Positions 1,014 to 39,752 are shown, counted from the first letter of the stretch. The stretch: DNA of 64,000 nt from Candidatus Uhrbacteria bacterium GW2011_GWE2_46_68 (GCA_001002765.1 LCMS01000005.1:2562-66561), one strand, 5' to 3'. Notes: generated by a model not told the origin, from the sequence alone. A program made the numbers and translations.

Positions 1014-1439
1014 ATGCCAACCGTTCAACAACTTATTCGAAAACCTCGTAAGCGTACAAAGGTGAAGAGCAAATCACCAGCCTTGCAATATTCGATGGAC
1101 ACACTTCATCGCAAGCGTACGATTTTGAAAAAAGGAAGCTCTTTTAAGCGTGGGGTGTGTGTGAAAGTGACCACCATGACACCAAAGAAGCCAAACTCTG
1201 CGATCCGCAAGATTGCTCGTGTACGTTTAAGTAACGGAACCGAGGTGACGGCATATATCCCAGGGGAGGGGCATAATCTTCAAGAACACTCCATCGTGAT
1301 GATTCGCGGTGGGCGTGTAAAGGATTTGCCTGGTGTGCGCTATCACATTGTTCGAGGCGTCTATGATACACAAGGGATTGATGCCCGTCGTCGCAGTCGC
1401 TCTCTTTACGGTTCCAAACGTCCTAAAGTTAAAAAATAA
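1014..1439 (+). CDS. rpsL: 30S ribosomal protein S12
   Basis: 141 aa; [20 protein letters not shown] motifs; carries a ~16-aa insertion ([19 protein letters not shown]) relative to E. coli S12. Confidence 0.95.
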
Positions 1440-1510
1440 TTTTTTTATAAATTGCTCGGTGGGAAGTACCTCGCACACGCAGGGAAGAAACTCATCGGCA
1501 CCAATACTTT

Positions 1511-19011: not shown

Positions 19012-19778
19012 GTACTCTTTTTTCCACAACCGGCATCATTCTTTCTTGTCGGGATCATAAAGAAGTCGATCGTTGGTACGCCATGTACACGAAAGATTAT
19101 GGCAAGATAGAGTTTCTTGCCCGTGGGGGACAAAAAGTTTTAGCAAAACTTACACCTCATTTGGAAACACTTGGGGAAGTGCATACGCTTCTGGTCCAAG
19201 GAAGGCAATACCCAACACTCACCGGGGTGGAGCGCAAGCGAGCTTTTTTAGGAGCGCAATCCGATTATCAAAAAATGGTTCTCGCGCAAAACGCCATGAG
19301 TCTTATGGATATGGGGACGCGACCTCATGAAGCCGACCCCGTCCTTTATGACGTTCTTCACCAATGGCTTTCGTTTCTTGATACAGCCCCTTCTCTTTCA
19401 CCCGAACGTTCCGCTTATCTTTTGGGAAGTTTTTCTTTGAAACTTTTGGCGCTTTTGGGATATCGTCCCGAGCTGCATCAGTGTCTTCGTTGTCGACAAT
19501 CCGTTCGTCCAAAAGAATTTTATTGGCATGCGCTTAAGGGGGGAATCGTCTGTGTTTCTTGCAGGAAACAAGATTCTGATCAGTATTTTGCCGCGCGTCC
19601 CATGGAAGAAACCACTCTCAAACTCATTCGATTTGCCATGGGGGAGTCGTTTTCCGATCAATTACGCCCGCCGCTACCAGGGGAAACGCTTCTGGCATTC
19701 CATGAAGCGATAGAGGCTCTCATCATTTCTCATTTTCCCATTATCCCTGTCAATTCTCTCCGCGCTTCTTGTCAGTAA
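19008..19778 (+). CDS. recO: DNA repair protein RecO
   Basis: 256 aa; N-terminal OB region plus CLRC...CVSC zinc-finger spacing typical of RecO. Confidence 0.75.
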   Translation: MSTLFSTTGIILSCRDHKEVDRWYAMYTKDYGKIEFLARGGQKVLAKLTPHLETLGEVHTLLVQGRQYPTLTGVERKRAFLGAQSDYQKMVLAQNAMSLMDMGTRPHEADPVLYDVLHQWLSFLDTAPSLSPERSAYLLGSFSLKLLALLGYRPELHQCLRCRQSVRPKEFYWHALKGGIVCVSCRKQDSDQYFAARPMEETTLKLIRFAMGESFSDQLRPPLPGETLLAFHEAIEALIISHFPIIPVNSLRASCQ

Positions 19779-19785
19779 ACGAAAA

Positions 19786-19815
19786 AACCACCCTTTCATA
19801 TCAGGGTGGTTTGCG
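19786..19815. terminator. Bidirectional intrinsic terminator (A-run, ACCACCCT/AGGGTGGT stem, T-run) between convergent recO and the WD40 gene
   Basis: Inverted repeat flanked by A- and T-tracts, seen directly. Confidence 0.55.
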
Positions 19816-19828
19816 TTTACATTCCTCG

Positions 19829-20824
19829 CTAGATAAGCAAGGCTTCCTCTTCTTCACTGAGCGTTCCAAGTTGGCATTTTCCGAAATCCAGAATTCCAAA
19901 ACCAGGATAGTGTTCGCCGTGAGCCACTCCATACACGACCACGTATCTTCCATTTGGAGAGCAAACGATGCTGCTGATTTGAGAGAATTTTTGGATGCTT
20001 TTTATGATCTTGCGCGTGAGAAGATCTATCACACGAAGCACTTTTTGCGTTCCCACAAGGAGAAATCTTCCACAACTCGTAAAGGCAATTACCTGGATGG
20101 AAAAGTTACGATGAAGGCCTAATTTGATCGTGTGAGATTTTTTTTCTTTCAGATCCATGACCGTCAATTCCGCATCTCCGCTTTTGAAGGCAAGCGTCCG
20201 ACCGTTGGGAGAAAGGGCGATCGTTTCGGTGTCCCAATCATTTCTCGTAGCGCAAAGTTGTTTTTCTCTCCACCAATTCCAGATCAAGCGCTTGTTTACG
20301 GAAACAGTGCCATCTCCTTTGAAGCAAAGGAAGCTTTCACCATTTTGAGCCATCAATGTTCCTCTCACAATTCCGCGGTATCGTAGATGTGCGGATCGTT
20401 TTTTTTCCTTCATTGAAACGACCCGCATGGATCCGTATCGAGAAACAATGAGAATCGATGTTCCATCTGGAAAGAAGCCAAAAGAAGCAATGTGATATTC
20501 ATGTGATATTGTCTCGAAGCATTCCAAGCCGCTTTCATCCCTTATCGTGCAAAAGAACACATTATTTTCGATCGCCATGGCAATGATTTGTGGGTCCCTG
20601 GGAGAAAAGGCTATGCAGATAATTTCCTGTTGTATGGGATAAAGGAATCTTTCCACAAAATTTCCATCACCGATTTTACGAATATGGACAAAGTTGCGCT
20701 CACCAGCAGTTCTCTCAATACCCGCGAGATATTGTCCGTTGCAGGAAAAAATAGGTCCTCGAACACATTCGATATAAAGGGAAAGTGTGGGGTCTGGAAT
20801 GACAAGAGGCGGAACTCCAGTCAT
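19829..20824 (-). CDS. WD40 / PD40-like beta-propeller repeat protein (331 aa)
   Basis: Repeated FSPDG / SPNGR blade motifs; no signal peptide; start ATG is preceded by AGGAGGGTTC, identical to the next gene. Confidence 0.75.
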   Translation of the reverse strand: MTGVPPLVIPDPTLSLYIECVRGPIFSCNGQYLAGIERTAGERNFVHIRKIGDGNFVERFLYPIQQEIICIAFSPRDPQIIAMAIENNVFFCTIRDESGLECFETISHEYHIASFGFFPDGTSILIVSRYGSMRVVSMKEKKRSAHLRYRGIVRGTLMAQNGESFLCFKGDGTVSVNKRLIWNWWREKQLCATRNDWDTETIALSPNGRTLAFKSGDAELTVMDLKEKKSHTIKLGLHRNFSIQVIAFTSCGRFLLVGTQKVLRVIDLLTRKIIKSIQKFSQISSIVCSPNGRYVVVYGVAHGEHYPGFGILDFGKCQLGTLSEEEEALLI

Positions 20825-20845
20825 GAACCCTCCTTATGTTTGAAA

Positions 20846-20903
20846 GAACAAAACCTTTCGGTGCGTGGCCGAGTTGTTCGGCTGCGCGCAGAAAGGGGCG
20901 AGA
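20846..20903 (-). promoter_or_regulatory. Copy A of the conserved ~55-nt intergenic stem-loop element (outer stem CCTTTCTGC/GCACCGAAAGG, inner variable hairpin, then TTTTGTTCTTTC in gene sense); putative attenuator, processing site or 5'-UTR RNA motif
   Basis: Three near-identical copies at 20846-20903, 21957-22013 and 24714-24771, with compensatory changes in the inner hairpin. Confidence 0.6.
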
Positions 20904-20934
20904 GTTTCGTATCTCACCCACGTAAAGGACAGGT

Positions 20935-21903
20935 TCAAATATAGATGGCAGCTTCTTCGGGGGACAGTGATCCGAGATTGGGACCATCAAAATCAAAGAC
21001 ACTGAGTGTGCATTGGTCTTTCACTGAAGGATCGTTGTGTGTATTGACAACAAGCCTGCTCCAATCTTGAGAGAAGCAGAATGAACATACAGATTGTACA
21101 AATCCTTCTATCCTTCCCTTTTCCTGCCAAGTATCTGTACTCCAGAACCTCAATGAACAATCTGATGATCCAGATGCAATCAGTTTTCCATCCGGAGAAA
21201 ACGCGACTCCATACACAATTGATCCGTGTTCAATAGATGCACACTGCTGCGCTGTTTCCACATCCCAGATTTTTACTGTGGTATCCTCTGATCCCGACGC
21301 CATCAGGTTTCCATCCGGAGAAAACGCAACAGTGTGAATGCGACTCTTGTGTCCAGTCAGTCTTTGTTTTACTTGTCTTGTGTGTATATCAATAATTATG
21401 ACCATGTCATCCGAGTATCCTATTGCCACGAACTGTCCGTTTGGAGAAAACACAGCGGATTCGACAGACCTTCCTCTTTTTATTTCTCCAATGTCCAGTA
21501 CTAATTCTTCTGTTAGGACATTCCAGATATAGGTTTGATATCCATCACCCGAACAAAAGACGCACGTTCCATCAGGAGAAAAAGCAACAATGCGACAGAG
21601 GGCTATCCTCTGTCCAAGAAGTTGAGGATCTCTATGAGGATCATTCAAAGAAAAAATCTTCGGCAGCGATTGATTTTCCCCAACAATCAAGAGGTTCCCA
21701 TTAGGAGAAAGCGCAAATGCCTCGACGGGAATAGAGAATATTCTTTGGTGACAACAGACTCCCGTTTCCCCATGCCAAAAGCGCATGAACTGATTTTCCC
21801 CCATAGACACAATTCGACGTCCATTGTTGGAAATTCTTACGGTGCGGACATAAGACTCATGACCGACAAAAAGTCTTTTCTGTTTGGGAACAGCAAAACT
21901 CAT
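20935..21903 (-). CDS. WD40-repeat protein (about 322 aa from the ATG at 21903; a TTG at 21927 extends the ORF)
   Basis: Canonical WD40 signatures (GH...WD, TGHKSRIHTVAFSPDGNLMASGSEDTTVKIWDV); same AGGAGGGTTC-ATG context as the previous gene. Confidence 0.8.
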   Translation of the reverse strand: MSFAVPKQKRLFVGHESYVRTVRISNNGRRIVSMGENQFMRFWHGETGVCCHQRIFSIPVEAFALSPNGNLLIVGENQSLPKIFSLNDPHRDPQLLGQRIALCRIVAFSPDGTCVFCSGDGYQTYIWNVLTEELVLDIGEIKRGRSVESAVFSPNGQFVAIGYSDDMVIIIDIHTRQVKQRLTGHKSRIHTVAFSPDGNLMASGSEDTTVKIWDVETAQQCASIEHGSIVYGVAFSPDGKLIASGSSDCSLRFWSTDTWQEKGRIEGFVQSVCSFCFSQDWSRLVVNTHNDPSVKDQCTLSVFDFDGPNLGSLSPEEAAIYI

Positions 21904-21956
21904 GAACCCTCCTTCCCACTTCGCCAAGGCTACGTGGGATGTATGTTTTTTTGAAT

Positions 21957-22013
21957 GAACGAAACCTTTCGGTGCTCTGCCGAGATTTTCAGCAGTGCGC
22001 AGAAAGGGGCGAG
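21957..22013 (-). promoter_or_regulatory. Copy B of the conserved intergenic stem-loop element
   Basis: See copy A; the inner hairpin here is CTGA...TCGG, with a G-U wobble replacing the CCGA/TCGG pairing. Confidence 0.6.
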
Positions 22014-22034
22014 GACGTATTCCTCACCCTTGAT

Positions 22035-24674
22035 TTACATGAGACGCACCGGTCGTGCCGGAGGTGTCTTTGGAATCTTTTCTCCTCTCAATACTCGCTC
22101 ACAGTGAGTGGCAATCGTTTCGTATCCTTGCGGGAGCCAGCGGCGCGAACTCGTGTACTTGATGGCCGCAAGGGTCATCTTGGCGATCTGCTCTTGGGAA
22201 GCCGCAGGGAGGAAATCCCCAACCGCCTGATCGAAATCCGCTTCGCTCACAATCTCGCGCCCATCCTCAAGTGATCGCTGGGCCGCCAGTCGCACAATGA
22301 CCTCGATATCCGCACCAGACCATCCGTCTGTTGTTGCAGCCAATCTGCCGAAATCCGTTACGTCACTCTCATATCCATATCGCCGCAGCATCACAGGGAA
22401 CAAGTCACGACGCGTGGCATCATCGGGCATAAGAAGGGGGATACGTTCATCCGTACGTCCGGAGCGAATGAGTGCAGCGTCCAGTCGATCAGGCCGGTTA
22501 CTGCAGCTGATGACAAAGATCTTGCCGCGAATCTTTGGATCGGAAAGAAACTCCATCCATCCGCGACGCAGACGCGCCGATACACCGGAATCACCTTGAA
22601 ACGCATCACGTCCACTGTCTTCTTCATCCACTTCATCTCGCAAGACAACAATCGGAGCCAGGCTCCGCATAGCCGCAAACGTTTCTTCCATCTTACGCTC
22701 GGTTTCACCCACCCACATGGTGCGCACATTGCGAATCTTCACAAACAAGACGCCGCATTCGTGCGCGAACGCCTCGGCGATTGCGGTCTTTCCCGTTCCA
22801 GGGGGACCGATCAGGAGGCATCCCATGGGCACACGACGCGCATCACCGCTTTGAATCCAATCACGTACATGGGCAAAAAAGCTCTTGATGTGATCGAGTC
22901 CGGCGATTCCTTCAAATCCGTAAGCAGGATCCACAATGTCCATGAGATGACCATAGGTTCGCCGCAAGATTTTGATGCGGGCGGAGAGCACTTCTCCTGT
23001 TGTGACCACACGTTCGTCTGCTCGGGCAGACAAGAAAATTTCGAGCAGGTCTCGATAGCCGAGTCCTTGGCACAGTCGTGCGATTTCCTCAATGCCTTCT
23101 TTGGGCTTTGGGAATCGGGAAGGCACATCACCCTGTCGAGCCATTTCTTTCTCAAGTCGTTTGATCCATTGTTGCTTGGCAACAATATCCGCGTTCGACG
23201 GATTTTCGAATTGCTTTTCGAGTTCGGCGATTTCCATTTCGATATCCTTGCGTTCCTTTGCAAGTTGCTTGTCGAGAACGACGCGCAAAGCATCGCATTT
23301 CGCTACAGACTCATCATAAGCCTGCCTTGCACATACCACAGATTCAGACGGAGGGAAATTGCGAACATCGGTCTCAATCACTGAAATCTCATCGGCAAGT
23401 GTCTTTGCCTCATGTGATCCATAGGTCAAAACGGCTTGTGAAGTGGATTCTTTGCCACCGGGTTTTGCCGAAGCTCGCCGTGTCACTGATCTGTCCGCAT
23501 TCATCTTGATTCGAATCGGTTCTCCTTCCGTGCTCATAAATACTTCACCCGGGCGATCTGCGCGTTCCAGGGAAATTTCCCCGTTAGAGTAGATTTCCCA
23601 TACACGCATAGGTCGTCCAGCGTTGGTGGAGAGCCATCCGCCCTTTTTGATGGTTTTCCAGTTTTGCGGAGTGATGGCACCAAATTGCAGGGAAGGATCT
23701 TGATCACGCCTAACCTTCAAATCGAGCAATGCCTTTTGCGTTTCATTTGTTTCTCGTGCAATACGCAGGGCATCTTTGGCATTTTCCGCATGGAGTGTCA
23801 CAAAGAGTGCATGGGATTTGGCAAGCGCATCTTGCATCTGTGGATTTGCACCCAGATCCTGATCCATACGCGCGAGAATTTCGCGGCGTTTACCCATCTC
23901 AATTCGCAGTCGAGATTCTTCTTTGGAAATGAGAGCGGCATGTTCCAACTGCGACTGCCTGATTTGTTTTGCCAGATCATCACTTTCCGTAATACGCGCA
24001 AGAAACATCTTGCGTTCAGCCTCGGACGGCCGAGCGACACGGATGACCTTGAAGGGAGCATCGTGTCGACGCAGACGTTCATCAACTGCTTGGATTGCCG
24101 GAGTGCTCATGAGAATACGATGTCCGGCTGATCGAAACACAGGAGATCCCGCGAGTTGGATCAATGCCAAGCTGATCGTTGCCGATACACCCGCCATGGC
24201 ATTTCCCTCCGAGGATGGACAGAGCGCATCTGCATCCGGGAGGATCAATAGACAGGGGACAGGGGGCTTCTCTTGCGGGCATAGGGCGAGGACTTGTTGG
24301 AGAATCGGCAGGGCGGCTTGCGGGTTCCGCGGAAGATCCTGCTGCTGCATCATCTGCCTGCGTTGTTTGGCAATGGGATCGTTTACGTCCTGTTGTGTGC
24401 CTTGTGTTTTTTCAAAGATTTTTACGAATCGTTTGTGATCATCTTCACGCGGAAACGTGAAGCCACGTGCCACATCAAAGACCACGACCATTTCACCGTT
24501 TGCAAAAGCATCACAGACCACATCTTCCCAACGAAGCAAGACATCCATGTGCTCAAGTTCGGCCAGACACGGTCTGGGGAACCCATCACCCACAGAACCT
24601 ATACACAAAACAGCGGTTGCACCGCAGCGGAAACTCCGTTGTACGTCTTCAAGCCAGGACAGTGGAGTGTCCAT
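22035..24674 (-). CDS. Large AAA+ ATPase (880 aa from ATG 24674; the ORF opens at 24800): C-terminal classical AAA domain (CDC48/FtsH-like), N-terminal ~560-aa uncharacterised region with coiled coils
   Basis: Walker A GPPGTGKT; Walker B VVLRDEVDE; sensor-1/arginine-finger region SCSNRPDRLDAALIRSGRTDERI; start MDTPLSWL preceded by GAGG Shine-Dalgarno; coding sequence is GC-rich relative to the rest of the window. Confidence 0.8.
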   Translation of the reverse strand: MDTPLSWLEDVQRSFRCGATAVLCIGSVGDGFPRPCLAELEHMDVLLRWEDVVCDAFANGEMVVVFDVARGFTFPREDDHKRFVKIFEKTQGTQQDVNDPIAKQRRQMMQQQDLPRNPQAALPILQQVLALCPQEKPPVPCLLILPDADALCPSSEGNAMAGVSATISLALIQLAGSPVFRSAGHRILMSTPAIQAVDERLRRHDAPFKVIRVARPSEAERKMFLARITESDDLAKQIRQSQLEHAALISKEESRLRIEMGKRREILARMDQDLGANPQMQDALAKSHALFVTLHAENAKDALRIARETNETQKALLDLKVRRDQDPSLQFGAITPQNWKTIKKGGWLSTNAGRPMRVWEIYSNGEISLERADRPGEVFMSTEGEPIRIKMNADRSVTRRASAKPGGKESTSQAVLTYGSHEAKTLADEISVIETDVRNFPPSESVVCARQAYDESVAKCDALRVVLDKQLAKERKDIEMEIAELEKQFENPSNADIVAKQQWIKRLEKEMARQGDVPSRFPKPKEGIEEIARLCQGLGYRDLLEIFLSARADERVVTTGEVLSARIKILRRTYGHLMDIVDPAYGFEGIAGLDHIKSFFAHVRDWIQSGDARRVPMGCLLIGPPGTGKTAIAEAFAHECGVLFVKIRNVRTMWVGETERKMEETFAAMRSLAPIVVLRDEVDEEDSGRDAFQGDSGVSARLRRGWMEFLSDPKIRGKIFVISCSNRPDRLDAALIRSGRTDERIPLLMPDDATRRDLFPVMLRRYGYESDVTDFGRLAATTDGWSGADIEVIVRLAAQRSLEDGREIVSEADFDQAVGDFLPAASQEQIAKMTLAAIKYTSSRRWLPQGYETIATHCERVLRGEKIPKTPPARPVRLM

Positions 24675-24713
24675 GAAAGACCTCGAGGTTAGGTTGTTGA
24701 GAGGAGTTGTAAA

Positions 24714-24771
24714 GAACAAAACCTTTCGGTGCACTTCCGAGTTTCCTCGGCAGCGCGCAGAAAGGGCGATG
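24714..24771 (-). promoter_or_regulatory. Copy C of the conserved intergenic stem-loop element (inner hairpin CCGAG-GAAA-CTCGG)
   Basis: See copy A. Confidence 0.6.
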
Positions 24772-25404
24772 TTAGCGTGACATCGCCGTGTGACCATCAA
24801 GCCCCATCAGGTTCAAGATAGCCAACGCTTTTGAGTAATCCGTAACCCCGGTTATTTGGACAGCTCGATTTTCATGCATTCTGACCTCGAGATGAGAACC
24901 GGAAAGATCATCCATACAGTACCGGTCGGTCAAAAGGTGAATCCTTTGGTTACCCGATCCTCGCAGAGGAAGACCTTCAGTGTGGTGACGGATTTGGAAC
25001 GGACCGTCGATCAACACATCAATATGTTGGAGCAGATTTTGTGTTCCCCTTGATGCACGTCGTCCTTCCAGGCGTCTGCGTGTATATCCTGACCAAGCCA
25101 AGGTGGATAGACCAAGGATGTGAACAGCCTCGCAGAGTTCGGACAAGACAATCGCCTGATCAAACGGTTCACCGCCGGAAATGCTGATCCCTTCAATTCC
25201 GTATTCTTCTTTGGCCTTTCGGATTTTTTGCAACATTCGCCACAGAGCGATATCAGCTTTTGGATCTTGATCCAGGTAGAAGGGGGAGATGCATCCCGGG
25301 CAGCGAATCCTGCAGCCACGCACCCATAGGCAGGCCCGAAGGCCCGGTCCCATGGCACGCGTTGCCGGTTCGAAGTGCCCAAGATTGATCGTCTTTTTTC
25401 CCAT
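24772..25404 (-). CDS. nrdG: Anaerobic ribonucleotide reductase activating protein-like radical-SAM enzyme (NrdG family)
   Basis: GPGLRACLWVRGCRIRCPGC (CxxxCxxC), GISISGGEP, WSGYT, VLIDGPF, LRGSGNQ are collinear with E. coli NrdG motifs; no nrdD is visible in the window. Confidence 0.75.
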   Translation of the reverse strand: MGKKTINLGHFEPATRAMGPGLRACLWVRGCRIRCPGCISPFYLDQDPKADIALWRMLQKIRKAKEEYGIEGISISGGEPFDQAIVLSELCEAVHILGLSTLAWSGYTRRRLEGRRASRGTQNLLQHIDVLIDGPFQIRHHTEGLPLRGSGNQRIHLLTDRYCMDDLSGSHLEVRMHENRAVQITGVTDYSKALAILNLMGLDGHTAMSR

Positions 25405-25409
25405 GGCGT

Positions 25410-25625
25410 CTAGTTCTTTGCTCGGGCAGGAGCGTTTGGAATCGCCTGCGGGATTCCGGGGTCTTCGGAGCGTTCGTCCATCTCTTCGATGCCGGCGCCT
25501 AAAAGATCCAAGATGACCTTCATTCGTTCTGCGACTGCACGGCAGCCGGGACCAGGAGGGATGTCCACATCCACATTGCTTCGACCGCTTTTGGGATCAA
25601 TGATGACCGTGATGCGGCGGCTCAT
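25410..25625 (-). CDS. Small hypothetical protein (71 aa) with strong GGAGG Shine-Dalgarno; stop-start coupled to the upstream 172-aa ORF (TGA-n-ATG); ends 5 nt before nrdG
   Basis: ORF 25410..25664 trimmed to the internal Met with the best RBS; function unknown. Confidence 0.4.
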   Translation of the reverse strand: MSRRITVIIDPKSGRSNVDVDIPPGPGCRAVAERMKVILDLLGAGIEEMDERSEDPGIPQAIPNAPARAKN

Positions 25626-25626
25626 A

Positions 25627-26145
25627 TCAGACCTCCTCACGCAGATTGGTGGAGAGGATGACAAGGCCGTTACTGGTCGTTTGCTCGGTTGGCGTTCCGC
25701 CGATCAGTTGGAGCATGGCCTTGTACGCTTCGATTCGGTAGGCATCTTCCAATACCTTGGTCATTTGCTCGAGCTTGTGTGATCCTCTTTCCATTGCGTA
25801 TCCGTTCCAAAACAGAAGCAAAGTTGTTCCATCAAGCGCAACACCCAGTTGAACATCTCCTGATTGGAGCACACCTACACAAGTTCCATTGGGAGGGGCG
25901 CCACTTGCTGTCTGATAACTGGTGCTGTTGTCGTGGGAATCCTTGATTCTGCAGTTGTTGATCTTTGCTGCCGCTCGAGCGATGGCGCGCTTGGCCACTT
26001 CTTTTCGGATTGTCGACCAGTTGAGTCCTCGCAATTGACGTGCGAGCGCAGGGTCGGTCCTTTCAAGTTTCCTAAGTACATCATCCACACTGTCGCCTTG
26101 ATGCGAGAGCGTTTTTTGATGAAGTACATTCCAGTGTTGGCTCAT
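25627..26145 (-). CDS. Hypothetical protein (172 aa), first gene of the GC-rich minus-strand cluster; GGAGG RBS
   Basis: Intact ORF with protein-like composition; no recognisable motif. Confidence 0.45.
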   Translation of the reverse strand: MSQHWNVLHQKTLSHQGDSVDDVLRKLERTDPALARQLRGLNWSTIRKEVAKRAIARAAAKINNCRIKDSHDNSTSYQTASGAPPNGTCVGVLQSGDVQLGVALDGTTLLLFWNGYAMERGSHKLEQMTKVLEDAYRIEAYKAMLQLIGGTPTEQTTSNGLVILSTNLREEV

Positions 26146-26386
26146 AAGACCTCCATATGTGGGGGTTTGGGGGGTAAAGAACTGCGTTCCGCCTATGAGG
26201 GAGAACGCAATTTTTTATCAAAAAATAGCCAAAAAGTCAACGATTCTGCCTGTCTTTTGTGCCCTTTTAGACCTCATCAAAATGAACAAGAGAAAAATCG
26301 TTATTTTTCCCCAGTTTTTTGAGATTTTTCATTGCCCGTTCCCTTGGTTTGCGATACCATAAGAACGTTATTCTTTACGTATTTTT

Positions 26387-27685
26387 ATGCCCAAATCATC
26401 GGTTTCCACGATCGGATCCTTTCTTGGTCAGACTGTGACGCTTTCCGGTTGGGCATATAATTTTCGCTCAAGCGGAAAGATTTTTTTCTTGCAGTTTCGC
26501 GATGGTACTGGTCGCATCCAGGTAGTCTATTCCAAATCCCAGTTGTCGGAGGATCAATGGGCGGCTTTGGAATCGTTAAAAATGGAGTCCTCGGTTACGA
26601 TTACAGGAGTAGTTAAACAAGACGATCGTGCTCCATCTGGTTATGAAATTGATGGCGCGGCGTTTTCTATTATTCAACTTGCTCCGGACGATTATCCTAT
26701 TTCCAAGAAAGATCATGGACCTGATTTTCTTTTGGATCATCGCCATTTGTGGTTGCGCTCCGAACGCCAATGGGCCATTCAACGCGTGCGCGATACGATC
26801 ATTCACGCTACCTATGACTTCATGCGCGAGGAAGGATTTATAAAATTCGATTCCCCGATTTTGACACCCAATGCCTGTGAGGGAACCACCGAGCTTTTTG
26901 AAATGGATTATTTTGAAGAAGCAAAGGCGTACCTCTCTCAATCAGGACAGCTTTATTTGGAAGCGGGGATCATGAGCTTTGGTCGCGTGTTTGATTTTGG
27001 TCCTGTGTTTCGTGCCGAGAAATCCAAGACACGTCGTCATTTGACCGAGTTTTGGATGATGGATGCGGAGGCCGCATTTGTGGAGCACGAAGAAAACATG
27101 CAAACACAAGAAGCCTTAGTCGTTCGCATTGTTCAAGATGTGCTTGCAAAAAATCGCGGAGAGTTGGCTTTGTTGGAACGGGATGTTTCCGCTTTGGAAA
27201 AAATACAAGCCCCGTTTGTTCATCTCACCCACAAAGATGCTGTCGTGAGACTGCGTGAGCTTGGAAGTGATATTGGAGAACGTGATGATTTGGGTGCGGA
27301 CGACGAGACTTTGTTGACGAAGCTTTATGATCGTCCGATTTTTGTGGAAAAATATCCTTCCGAGGTGAAAGCGTTTTATATGAAGCGAGATCCTGTGGAA
27401 ACAGATCGCGTGCTTGGAAATGATCTTTTGGCTCCGGAAGGATATGGAGAAATCATCGGCGGCAGTCAGCGCGAGGATGATTATGAAATTTTAAAACAAC
27501 GCATTATAGATCACGGATTACCTTTGGAACCTTTTGCTTGGTATCTTGATTTGCGCAAATACGGATCCGTTCCTCATGCAGGATTTGGGTATGGACTTGA
27601 GCGCATTGTCGGATGGATTTGCGGGACCCAACATATTCGCGAGACCATTCCATTTCCTCGCCTTATCAATCGTTTGACACCTTAA
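26387..27685 (+). CDS. asnS: Asparaginyl-tRNA synthetase
   Basis: 432 aa; N-terminal OB fold; class II motifs FRAEKSKTRRHLTEFWMMDAEAAF characteristic of AsnRS. Confidence 0.8.
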   Translation: MPKSSVSTIGSFLGQTVTLSGWAYNFRSSGKIFFLQFRDGTGRIQVVYSKSQLSEDQWAALESLKMESSVTITGVVKQDDRAPSGYEIDGAAFSIIQLAPDDYPISKKDHGPDFLLDHRHLWLRSERQWAIQRVRDTIIHATYDFMREEGFIKFDSPILTPNACEGTTELFEMDYFEEAKAYLSQSGQLYLEAGIMSFGRVFDFGPVFRAEKSKTRRHLTEFWMMDAEAAFVEHEENMQTQEALVVRIVQDVLAKNRGELALLERDVSALEKIQAPFVHLTHKDAVVRLRELGSDIGERDDLGADDETLLTKLYDRPIFVEKYPSEVKAFYMKRDPVETDRVLGNDLLAPEGYGEIIGGSQREDDYEILKQRIIDHGLPLEPFAWYLDLRKYGSVPHAGFGYGLERIVGWICGTQHIRETIPFPRLINRLTP

Positions 27686-27695
27686 GCGTATTGTT

Positions 27696-29009
27696 ATGAA
27701 AGAACGTTTTTTTGTCCGTGAACTCCCGGAACACTTAGGTCAAGAAGTCGTGGTTGCCGGTTGGTTGCATCGTCTGCGGGATCTCAATAAATTCGGATTT
27801 GCTATTCTTCGAGATCGTACCGGACTTGTGCAAGTGGTTTTGGATTCGACACAACTCGAGCAACTTAAAGGATTGCAACTGGAGACTGTGCTTAAAATCA
27901 CCGGAACGGTTGTGAAAAAACAAAGTAAGGATCCGCAGGCAGAAGAGGTGGAAGTGCAGGCAAAGATCATGGAAGTACTGTCTCCTGTCACTGATGTGCT
28001 TCCCATTGAAATCAACAAAGATGATGTGGAGGCACAGTTGGATTCTATTTTGGATCATCGTGTGACTACGCTTCGTAATCTCAAACAGCGTGCGATTTTT
28101 CGTGTGCAAGCAGCGTTGGTTCATGGATATCGCGCGTATATGGAGCGCCAAGGATTTACCGAGATTTTTTTTCCTGTTTTGGCCGGAGCGGCGAGCGAAG
28201 GTGGAGCAGAATTTTTTAAAGTGGATTATTACGGGCGTGAAGCCATGCTGACTCAGTCCGCACAGCTTTATAAACAAATGATGGTGGGAGTGTATGAGGG
28301 AGTGTATGGGCTTTCGTATTCGTTTCGTGCGGAAAAATTCGCCACTTCGCGGCACCTGACCGAGTTTAATCAATTTGAGTTTGAAGTGGGATTTGTTGAT
28401 GGGATGGAAGATATTATGGCGTATGCGGAAGCTTCATTGCGCGAAATGTTGGCAACCGTGGAGCGTGAAAATACATCTGAGCTCAAACTTTTGAACGTGA
28501 CTCTTCCTCCTTTGGGCGAACATTTTCCATGTGTGCGATTAAAAGAAGCTTTGCAGTTTTATAAAGAGGGGACTGGGATTGATGAGACAAAAGAACCCGA
28601 TCTTTCCCCTGCAGCGGAAAAATGGTTGTCTACCGTATGGGCGCCGCACACACATGGATCCGGATTTGTTTTTGTAACGCATTACCCAACATCCAAACGC
28701 CCGTTTTACACGGCGGTTGATCCGCAAAATTCCGAGGAGACCTTGAGTTTTGATTTGATTGGATTTGGTAGTGAAATTATTTCCGGAGGTTTGCGTGTGC
28801 ATCGGTACGATGAACAAGTGGCGCGATTGAAAGCGAAAGGATTAAATCCGGCCGATTTTGAAGATTATCTGGCCATGCACAAATACGGTATTCCTCCTGA
28901 GGGGGGATTTGGCATGGGGCTTCAGCGTTTGACACAAAATATTTTGGGATTAGCCAATATCAAGGAGGCGACGATTTTTCCTCGCGATGTCCAGCGCCTG
29001 CGGCCGTAA
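27696..29009 (+). CDS. aspS: Aspartyl-tRNA synthetase, archaeal/short type
   Basis: 437 aa; QSAQLYKQ and FRAEKFATSRHLTEF motifs; class II core; lacks the bacterial-type insertion domain. Confidence 0.7.
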   Translation: MKERFFVRELPEHLGQEVVVAGWLHRLRDLNKFGFAILRDRTGLVQVVLDSTQLEQLKGLQLETVLKITGTVVKKQSKDPQAEEVEVQAKIMEVLSPVTDVLPIEINKDDVEAQLDSILDHRVTTLRNLKQRAIFRVQAALVHGYRAYMERQGFTEIFFPVLAGAASEGGAEFFKVDYYGREAMLTQSAQLYKQMMVGVYEGVYGLSYSFRAEKFATSRHLTEFNQFEFEVGFVDGMEDIMAYAEASLREMLATVERENTSELKLLNVTLPPLGEHFPCVRLKEALQFYKEGTGIDETKEPDLSPAAEKWLSTVWAPHTHGSGFVFVTHYPTSKRPFYTAVDPQNSEETLSFDLIGFGSEIISGGLRVHRYDEQVARLKAKGLNPADFEDYLAMHKYGIPPEGGFGMGLQRLTQNILGLANIKEATIFPRDVQRLRP

Positions 29010-39675: not shown

Positions 39676-39752
39676 TGGTAGCTGGGGTGGGGATCGAACC
39701 CACGACCTCGGGCTTATGAGTCCCACGCTCTAGCCAACTGAGCTACCCAGCT
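39676..39752 (-). tRNA. tRNA-Met (anticodon CAT)
   Basis: Reverse complement gives AGCTGGG acceptor, D-arm GCTC/GAGC, loop CTCATAA, T-arm GTGGG-TTCGATC-CCCAC, CCA; the anticodon stem has one non-WC pair by my reading. Confidence 0.75.

Follow-up and report, generated by a model that had tools for sequence, protein, structure and literature searches.

A lineage-restricted structured RNA element repeated between the genes of a radical-SAM/AAA/WD40 cluster in Candidatus Uhrbacteria

Candidatus Uhrbacteria are uncultured groundwater bacteria of the Candidate Phyla Radiation (CPR), a group that cannot be grown in pure culture, and to our knowledge almost nothing is known about gene regulation in these organisms. 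The question pursued here is raised by a stretch of 64,000 nucleotides (nt) from Candidatus Uhrbacteria bacterium GW2011_GWE2_46_68 (LCMS01000005.1:2562-66561), referred to in the following as the window, with positions counted from its first letter. It harbors an operon of six minus-strand genes, among them those for a radical-SAM activase-like protein, an AAA+ ATPase and two WD40 proteins, and its only three sizeable spacers are occupied by copies of one and the same hairpin-forming element. What is this element, and what does it do at consecutive gene junctions? In the following, we describe its structure, conservation and distribution, weigh several explanations for its presence, and compare it with known systems.

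The element and its copies

A sequence-only reading of the window had proposed three copies of an element of about 55 nt, with none elsewhere in the 64 kb. Both counts hold. The pattern CCTTTCTGCGC-N(15-30)-GCACCGAAAGG has exactly three matches in the window, all on the minus strand (20854-20896, 21965-22007 and 24722-24765), whereas 0 of 100 dinucleotide-preserving shuffles contain a match, so that the chance expectation is 0 against 3 found. Searches with single arms, tolerating two to three mismatches, returned the same three sites alone, and a covariance model identified no additional sense-strand copy in the window. The length, by contrast, had been underestimated: the element spans about 88 nt, with a second hairpin (HP1) abutting the 5' side of the hairpin originally noticed (HP2). 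Furthermore, the copy between the radical-SAM and AAA genes starts upstream of position 24771, where the region had been taken to end, and reaches into the final codons of the radical-SAM gene.

This copy, A (24706-24793, minus strand), consists of HP1 (24787-24765, GGCGAUG...CAUCGCC), whose loop contains the UAA stop codon of the radical-SAM gene, HP2 (24765-24722) and a U-rich tail (24721-24706). Copy B (21949-22034, minus strand) lies between the AAA gene and WD40-1, with HP1 at 22028-22008 (GGUGAGGAA/GUCCUCGCC), HP2 at 22007-21965 and the tail at 21964-21949, and copy C (20838-20924, minus strand) lies between WD40-1 and WD40-2, with HP1 at 20918-20897 (GGUGAGA/UCUCGCC), HP2 at 20896-20854 and the tail at 20853-20838. 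All three are supported by pattern match, predicted fold and covariance model, the last scoring them at 72.7, 79.3 and 70.5 bits, respectively. Directly 3' of HP2, their tails read UUUUGUUCUUU or UUUCGUUCAUU. The proposed hairpin folds at -21.3 to -27.2 kcal/mol (z -3.2 to -3.9 relative to shuffles), copy A being at -27.2 kcal/mol and z -3.9. In copy B, HP1, HP2 and an optional third hairpin (HP3, described further below) are all present in both the minimum-free-energy and the centroid fold. The outer flanks, which had been predicted to pair, do form a hairpin, albeit an imperfect one with U·C and C·A mismatches. Likewise, the inner stem differs between the copies and stays paired, as had been observed: copy A has CCGAG/CUCGG, copy B CUGCUGA/UCGGCAG, one pair of which is U·G, and copy C GCCGA/UCGGC.

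The covariation read from these inner stems is supported, although the three window copies alone were insufficient to establish it and 23 more from related contigs were needed. These contigs were reached via homologs of the AAA protein and of the 172-amino-acid (aa) protein encoded first in the operon, and via scans of public collections for the two conserved arms. Altogether, the window and eight related Uhrbacteria metagenome contigs yield 26 distinct copies, all of them in gene sense between co-directional genes of one cluster, in which WD40 gene arrays accompany a radical-SAM and an AAA ATPase gene. In the related contigs that we read, every spacer between co-directional cluster genes has the element. 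Three copies come from L026, a syntenic locus with an AAA protein of 59% identity, and ten from L023, where AAA identity is 64% and the AAA gene stands within a run of at least nine WD40-like genes; the others are found in L030 (five), L031 (two), L029 (one), L032 (one) and L022/L028 (one).

An alignment of all 26 copies defines the anatomy of the element. HP1 is a hairpin of 7-9 base pairs (bp), which at WD40-WD40 junctions outside the window has the arms GGCAAGAYG/CRUYUUGCC, and it directly abuts HP2 with zero spacer. HP2 is a long imperfect hairpin of about 19 bp with two to three mismatches. Its base is formed by an invariant 6 bp (CCUUUC/GAAAGG). Above it lies a near-invariant mismatch, usually U·C but C·C in some copies and replaced by a C-G pair in one. 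A single G-C pair separates this from the invariant C·A mismatch, which is topped by two G-C pairs, one A·A or G-C position and, finally, an apical covarying stem of 7 bp that differs between copies. The U-rich tail after HP2 (UUUUGYUCWUU) is kept in 26 of 26 copies. The position with respect to the flanking genes is similarly regular: the upstream gene ends with its stop codon 6-22 nt ahead of HP1, or within the HP1 loop at the radical-SAM junction, and the next start codon follows HP2 at 28-31 nt in 15 of the 26 copies and at a longer distance where HP3 is inserted. The next Shine-Dalgarno sequence and start codon can thus be as near as 28 nt after HP2. With its 19 bp and internal mismatches, HP2 offers about two turns of irregular double-stranded RNA, and stacking of HP1 on it could extend this to about 28 bp.

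In several strains, the apex of HP2 is replaced by a multi-hairpin segment of 73-101 nt, while the HP2 base is retained (L022 981-1104; L034 8036-8159; L035 4345-; L037 3930-; L032 about 1368-1506, minus strand). These inserts are built of two or three hairpins with C-run and G-run arms (for example CCCCUCC..GGAGGGG, GGUUGCCG..CGGCAACC and CUCCCCCUUU..AGGGGGAG), and one strain can have the same insert in several copies.

The element is real, and its structure is well supported. The covariation counts rest on an alignment that we registered by hand, padding the loops with N, and fitted to the structure. In it, 95.4% of the pair cells are paired, compared with 34-46% when the partners are slid against each other. 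Eight pairs show changes on both sides, five in HP1 and three in the HP2 apex; at the level of individual cells, there are 39 such changes compared with 12.0 ± 2.8 in shuffles, and the covariation score of 0.241, compared with 0.113, was reached by 0 of 500 shuffles. RNAalifold, the check suggested along with the original reading, recovered both hairpins from an unbiased MAFFT alignment. Sequence conservation, too, is far above the neutral background. Four-fold degenerate sites of orthologous AAA genes have reached saturation, with 36-46% identity, yet at orthologous junctions the outer, basal arms of HP2 are identical at 20-22 of 22 positions and the HP1 stems at 12-17 of 18 (16-17 at all but one of the five junctions that were compared). 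Divergence is evident in the loops and the inner stem (5-12 of 16 identical), with pairing kept.

Comparison with the 4227 families of Rfam by cmscan gave nothing at gathering score across the whole window, and at E <= 10 over 19500-26500 only two unrelated chance matches, with no PyrR, ANTAR target, RAT or ribozyme family among them. We rate the element as a lineage-restricted structured RNA motif that is new to Rfam; searches of the literature on Uhrbacteria WD40 proteins, CPR intrinsic terminators and conserved intercistronic hairpins found nothing relevant. Some ribozyme classes are located at tandem genes and combine conserved non-Watson-Crick nucleotides with a variable apical domain, all of which the element has as well, and on these grounds it might be taken for a small self-cleaving ribozyme of a new kind, which would divide the polycistronic RNA into messages for individual genes. 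We find this scarcely credible, not only because the element resembles no known ribozyme family even at E <= 10, but also because it is made of two simple stacked hairpins, with no supported pseudoknot or multi-helix junction on reading the alignment, and has its conserved bases mostly within regular helices.

Its distribution is narrow. The covariance model scores all copies at 69-98 bits and has no other sense-strand match in about 198 kb, that is, the window and 15 related loci of about 135 kb; the common genome-wide repeat that had been named as an alternative, similar to repetitive extragenic palindromic (REP) sequences, is therefore not what we see. A scan of metagenome collections returned six contigs, each with the same kind of WD40 array. 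In a collection of genomes, the pattern CCTTTCTGC-N(17-35)-GCACCGAAAGG gave 21 single matches in unrelated phyla, with the source species not matched; we treated these as noise rather than as true copies, since about 20 are expected by chance (by our own arithmetic, 596 Gb x 2 strands x 19 gap lengths / 4^20). A scan of viral contigs for the conserved arms gave 0 matches.

An imperfect palindrome in many near-identical copies naturally recalls selfish palindromic mini-repeats of the REP type or of the miniature inverted-repeat transposable element (MITE) type, which would have colonised the spacers of the cluster with no function for the host, and these genomes do carry small mobile-looking hairpins, namely the tandem arrays of HP3 with a relative at a tRNA terminator and the inserts in the HP2 apex. 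Such an origin is nonetheless very unlikely, given that no copy lies outside the cluster in the window or in the related contigs, that the genome scan stays at chance level and the viral scan at zero, and that the element keeps a fixed position relative to stop and start codons. Moreover, orthologous junctions are occupied in lineages with 59-64% AAA identity, and by copies with junction-specific HP1 stems, which points to vertical retention under selection and not to recent spread.

The arrays themselves are variable. There are two WD40-like genes in the window, three in L026 and at least nine in L023 (1-12973), and one strain has an additional WD40 unit between the radical-SAM and AAA genes. 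In the arrays that we compared (L023 1-12973, L030 1-4500 and L026 12682-14786), the paralogs have conserved termini beside the element, with the N-terminal motif MTEV..P.IPEP and the C-terminal motif PEEA..Y-I/V-stop. The variable WD40 number and the extra unit suggest expansion and contraction by recombination between copies of the element. Another WD40 array (L029 1-2400, minus strand, and L030 4456-6543) is situated between the genes for nicotinate phosphoribosyltransferase (NAPRT) and glutamine-dependent nicotinamide adenine dinucleotide (NAD) synthetase (NadE), next to other NAD-salvage genes. Here, the element is found at both outer junctions, and thus marks junctions as such and not an untranslated region, be it 5' or 3', that belongs to a single gene family.

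It appears conceivable that these repeats act at the level of DNA, as homology blocks or cassette boundaries for the duplication, deletion or movement of WD40 genes, with a hairpin that is incidental or acts in single-stranded DNA. The differing copy numbers and the second array, bounded by the element at both ends, would fit, and so would the equally good folding energy of the antisense strand and the observation that copies within a locus are more alike than copies from different loci, which indicates concerted evolution. Yet we consider a dedicated recombination function improbable. Recombination is an expected by-product of any repeated sequence; the gene calls within 10 kb in L026 and L033-L038 include neither a recombinase nor an integrase, and the core sites of attC (RYYYAAC / GTTRRRY) are not present on reading the sequence. 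In addition, compensatory changes and G·U wobbles keep the hairpin, which plain homology blocks would not need, and all copies share a single orientation, in gene sense and with a U-tail.

The repeats also leave their mark on public data. As expected of repeats, which break assemblies, metagenome contigs repeatedly begin or end inside the element, typically in the HP2 arms (L025, L028, L033, L036, L038, L039 and L040), and the cluster is systematically fragmented at these junctions.

A possible role at transcript 3' ends

Folding energy failed to assign the element to a strand, sense and antisense being equally stable. We read it as a sense RNA for other reasons, namely the U-rich tail on its 3' side, its co-orientation with the genes in 26 of 26 copies, the sense-strand G·U pairs that recur at seven stem positions, and HP1, which is more stable on the sense strand in 17 of the 26 copies. 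In a context of 60-120 nt, HP1 and HP2 dominate the local folds, and no antiterminator or other alternative fold is conserved among the copies; L030_2 and L026C have long-range competitors, but these are not conserved and appear in the 120-nt context only. As no competing fold is conserved, there appears to be no built-in switch, and a self-contained attenuator or ligand switch finds no support. Two other structures were considered and dismissed: an alternative hairpin reported by a scanner in L023 (UUCGG-CCGAGCA-CCGAA) cannot form in the L026 copies, and a pseudoknot joining GAAC in the HP1 loop to GUUC in the tail shows no covariation on reading the alignment.

How, then, might such an element act? 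We give about an even chance to the explanation, drawn from the sequences, that it is a cluster-specific intercistronic RNA 'punctuation' module on the sense transcript, which forms and protects RNA 3' ends. HP2 and the U-tract would make a 3' end for the upstream cistron, either through weak (leaky) intrinsic termination or through an endonuclease cut in the single-stranded U-rich tail, and the stacked HP1-HP2 helix would shield this end from exonucleases. Each cistron of the long polycistronic transcript would thereby obtain its own stable end, and expression could be graded along the operon.

Part of this had been anticipated in the proposal that each copy acts as a terminator or attenuator, which the anatomy fits: a hairpin is followed by a U-tract, in gene sense and 6-22 nt after stop codons, in the same grammar as the genuine window terminators at 19787, 32900, 33432 and 39610, and copies A and C rank with the most stable hairpin-plus-U-tail sites in the window. 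An efficient plain terminator, on the other hand, is opposed by the serial copies, the apical inserts and the excess conservation of the stem. None of the L023 spacers has a promoter-like (sigma-70-like) site, and in the window, a promoter scanner reported no minus-strand promoter-like site in 19500-26500, and hence none in the three spacers. The scanner's rule requires T at position 6. Given that no spacer has a promoter-like site, the downstream genes need read-through.

Several observations weigh against the formation of 3' ends as the function of the element. In L023, at least ten elements stand in series and would otherwise silence the distal genes; strong termination is therefore unlikely, and each site would have to be weak or suppressed. 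The primary sequence of the stem is more conserved than a terminator or a protective hairpin needs, and the 73-101 nt inserts at the HP2 apex of several strains should slow the folding of a terminator. Because the invariant C·A becomes G·U on the antisense strand, HP2 tends to be slightly more stable there on average, and the sense strand is not favoured by folding energy. Lastly, many of the 26 copies are paralogs, drawn from few contigs and samples, so that we estimate the number of independent substitution events at about ten.

The near-invariant base of HP2 and its mismatches suggest that the element is tuned to be only partly active, that a host factor such as a nuclease or other protein recognizes it, or that both are the case, and the conservation of the base sequence, combined with the tolerance of apical inserts, hints at recognition by a factor acting in trans. 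This leads to another explanation, which is worth considering although we deem it rather unlikely: the element may be a factor-dependent site, at which a dedicated RNA-binding protein reads the HP2 base and mismatches and controls read-through (antitermination), stability or translation at all junctions simultaneously. Conceivable analogues are the three PyrR attenuators of the Bacillus pyr operon and the ANTAR sites of the eut operon, and the protein is possibly encoded in the cluster itself, as the 172-aa protein, the 71-aa protein, the N-terminal region of the AAA protein or a WD40 propeller.

Such a protein would account for basal arms that, along with the invariant C·A, persist across lineages saturated at synonymous sites, and for an apex that takes large inserts above a base that is kept, as expected if the base is recognized. 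It would also account for the same module at every junction whatever the flanking genes, including those after NAPRT and before NadE, and for the efficient read-through that at least ten serial copies would require. However, neither family searches nor, for the 172-aa protein, PDB sequence and fold searches found a candidate RNA-binding protein; there is no antiterminator fold and no match in Rfam to PyrR, ANTAR targets or RAT; and the array in L029 and L030 adjoins NAD-metabolism genes on contigs from which the head genes of the cluster are absent. It is only tentatively, therefore, that we entertain the broader proposal of a dedicated processing nuclease or antitermination/stability protein, possibly cluster-encoded, which would recognize the element and thereby punctuate and co-regulate an expandable WD40 array in CPR bacteria.

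Irrespective of the mechanism, this motif is well supported by 26 copies, compensatory changes and above-neutral conservation; Rfam does not contain it, and it is linked to a single rare cluster. Should it form 3' ends, as we favor, or serve as a processing site, it would show how CPR organisms adjust the relative amounts of the proteins that long paralog arrays encode. Should it be read by a specific factor, the two would be a new regulatory pair; with a dedicated factor, the element would represent a new class of protein-dependent cis-regulatory RNA, linked to a radical-SAM/AAA ATPase/WD40 system not described before. The significance of the element thus hinges on whether a dedicated factor reads it.

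The operon, its genes and neighboring hairpins

All six genes lie on the minus strand. The first is an open reading frame for the 172-aa protein (25627-26145), which has no match in Pfam, NCBIfam or PADLOC and no PDB sequence match. Its AlphaFold2 model (pLDDT, the predicted local distance difference test score, of 76.5) has no PDB fold match at E <= 0.001, and its six homologs are all Uhrbacteria-like. The second gene (25410-25625) encodes 71 aa without a family match, and is kept as a 71-aa gene in L026 and L033-L038. It is followed by the radical-SAM activase-like gene (24772-25404, 210 aa), which is NrdG/PflA-like with a Fer4_12 domain (Pfam PF13353, 1.5e-27; NCBIfam NrdG, 1.1e-24, under the curated cutoff).

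The AAA+ ATPase gene (22035-24674, 879 aa) encodes a C-terminal classic AAA domain (PF00004, 6.3e-28), and only four full-length relatives of its product were found among 5.8 billion proteins. The long N-terminal region weakly resembles a degenerate Rix7/NVL D1 domain, and a PDB sequence search with it returned nothing useful. WD40-1 (20935-21903, 322 aa) is a beta-propeller gene (PF00400, 1.3e-37), while WD40-2 (19829-20824, 331 aa), the last in the operon, is a divergent one with weak beta-propeller matches. A homolog search with WD40-2 gave two matches only, both at contig ends broken inside the element. Pfam and NCBIfam searches identified no known RNA-binding domain among the six operon proteins. 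The PADLOC defence models recognized no defence system, but only a generic AAA (IetA/TRIP13-like) and one repeat match. The operon (19829-26145) is very rare in public data, and its radical-SAM activase has no obvious glycyl-radical partner.

Upstream, a candidate sigma-70-type promoter of the operon was read by eye at 26212-26240 (minus strand; TTGACT, 17 nt, TAAAAA); under the position-6 rule given above, the promoter scanner did not flag it. Its 5' leader contains a hairpin, GCGUUCUCCC...GGCGGAACGC followed by AGUUCUUUACCCCCC (about 26208-26184, minus strand), which is unrelated to the element; the L026 leader differs. At its other end, the operon is closed by a plain intrinsic terminator (19775-19812, minus strand; AAACCACCC...GGGUGGUUU then UUUCGUUU), whose sequence is likewise unrelated to the element. 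Directly upstream of the cluster, on the plus strand, are two adjacent paralogous genes for class-II aminoacyl-tRNA synthetases (26387-27685 and 27696-29009), of the tRNA-synt_2 family with an anticodon-binding domain and of the Asn/Asp type. This pair is kept in related loci.

The optional HP3 (21915-21938, minus strand; CCCAC-GUAGCCUUGGCGAAG-GUGGG) is located just 5' of the Shine-Dalgarno sequence of WD40-1 and has a symmetric GUA/GAA internal loop and a GCC-UU-GGC apex. In related strains, it forms three to four tandem repeats with a period of 31-34 nt, and sites of the HP3 family were noted at L022 85-204 and 3974-4089, at L040 60-150 and at 39637-39599 (minus strand) in the window. Termination after the tRNA gene at 39679-39752 is assigned to a near-identical HP3-like hairpin with UUUUGUUUU behind it. 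Because it also occurs at this tRNA terminator, HP3 represents a separate family of small hairpins that is not specific to the cluster.

Comparison with known systems

Among systems in which structured elements separate co-oriented genes, integrons offer one comparison, as their attC sites are imperfect palindromes between successive co-oriented cassettes in arrays of variable length. The element, however, has neither the R''/R' cores (RYYYAAC ... GTTRRRY) nor extrahelical bases, its irregularities being mismatches and not bulges. Furthermore, no intI or integrase Pfam family is found within 10 kb in L026 and L033-L038, where the called genes are housekeeping genes, and the genes flanking the element are functionally related paralogs rather than unrelated cassettes.

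REP sequences and the bacterial interspersed mosaic elements (BIMEs) that they form, such as the one between malE and malF of E. coli, also have features in common with it. They, too, are imperfect intercistronic hairpins, with possible protection of the upstream message and differential expression, and as repeats they promote recombination. But REPs are dispersed genome-wide in hundreds of copies and tied to REP-associated tyrosine transposases (RAYTs), whereas the element is confined to one cluster (as judged from about 198 kb and the public scans) and has a U-rich tail, an abutting second hairpin and junction-specific, vertically conserved variants.

The RNase III sites of phage T7 resemble it in their architecture: these irregular hairpins span about two turns, have internal mismatches that are conserved, and are placed at many gene junctions of a polycistronic RNA. 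Cleavage there leaves a protective 3' hairpin; for the element, the likeness to a processing site is one of anatomy. A U-tract downstream is not part of what defines the T7 sites, which share no sequence similarity with the element, and the host here is a CPR bacterium, not a phage.

As for intrinsic terminators, the element shares with them a stable G+C-containing stem-loop, HP2 folding at -20 to -25 kcal/mol, and an immediate U-rich tract, 3' of a stop codon on the sense strand. Terminator stems are compact and fold quickly, typically with 5-14 bp and no large inserts; the stem of the element has about 19 bp with two to three mismatches, and the copies in L022, L032, L034, L035 and L037 have the apical inserts. 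Terminators and attenuators within operons are represented by the three PyrR-controlled sites of the B. subtilis pyr operon, in which a structured element is likewise repeated in consecutive spacers, in gene sense and as a hairpin directly followed by a U-tract, and in which the downstream genes rely on read-through. Unlike these, the element is found without an antiterminator fold, an Rfam or PyrR match or an identifiable regulator gene, and has its longer stem with conserved mismatches, sometimes with a 73-101 nt apical insert, in at least ten serial copies. While it belongs to none of the families tested, the element would, by analogy, work most like the terminators and attenuators within operons, the intercistronic REP stabilizers or the RNase III sites of T7.

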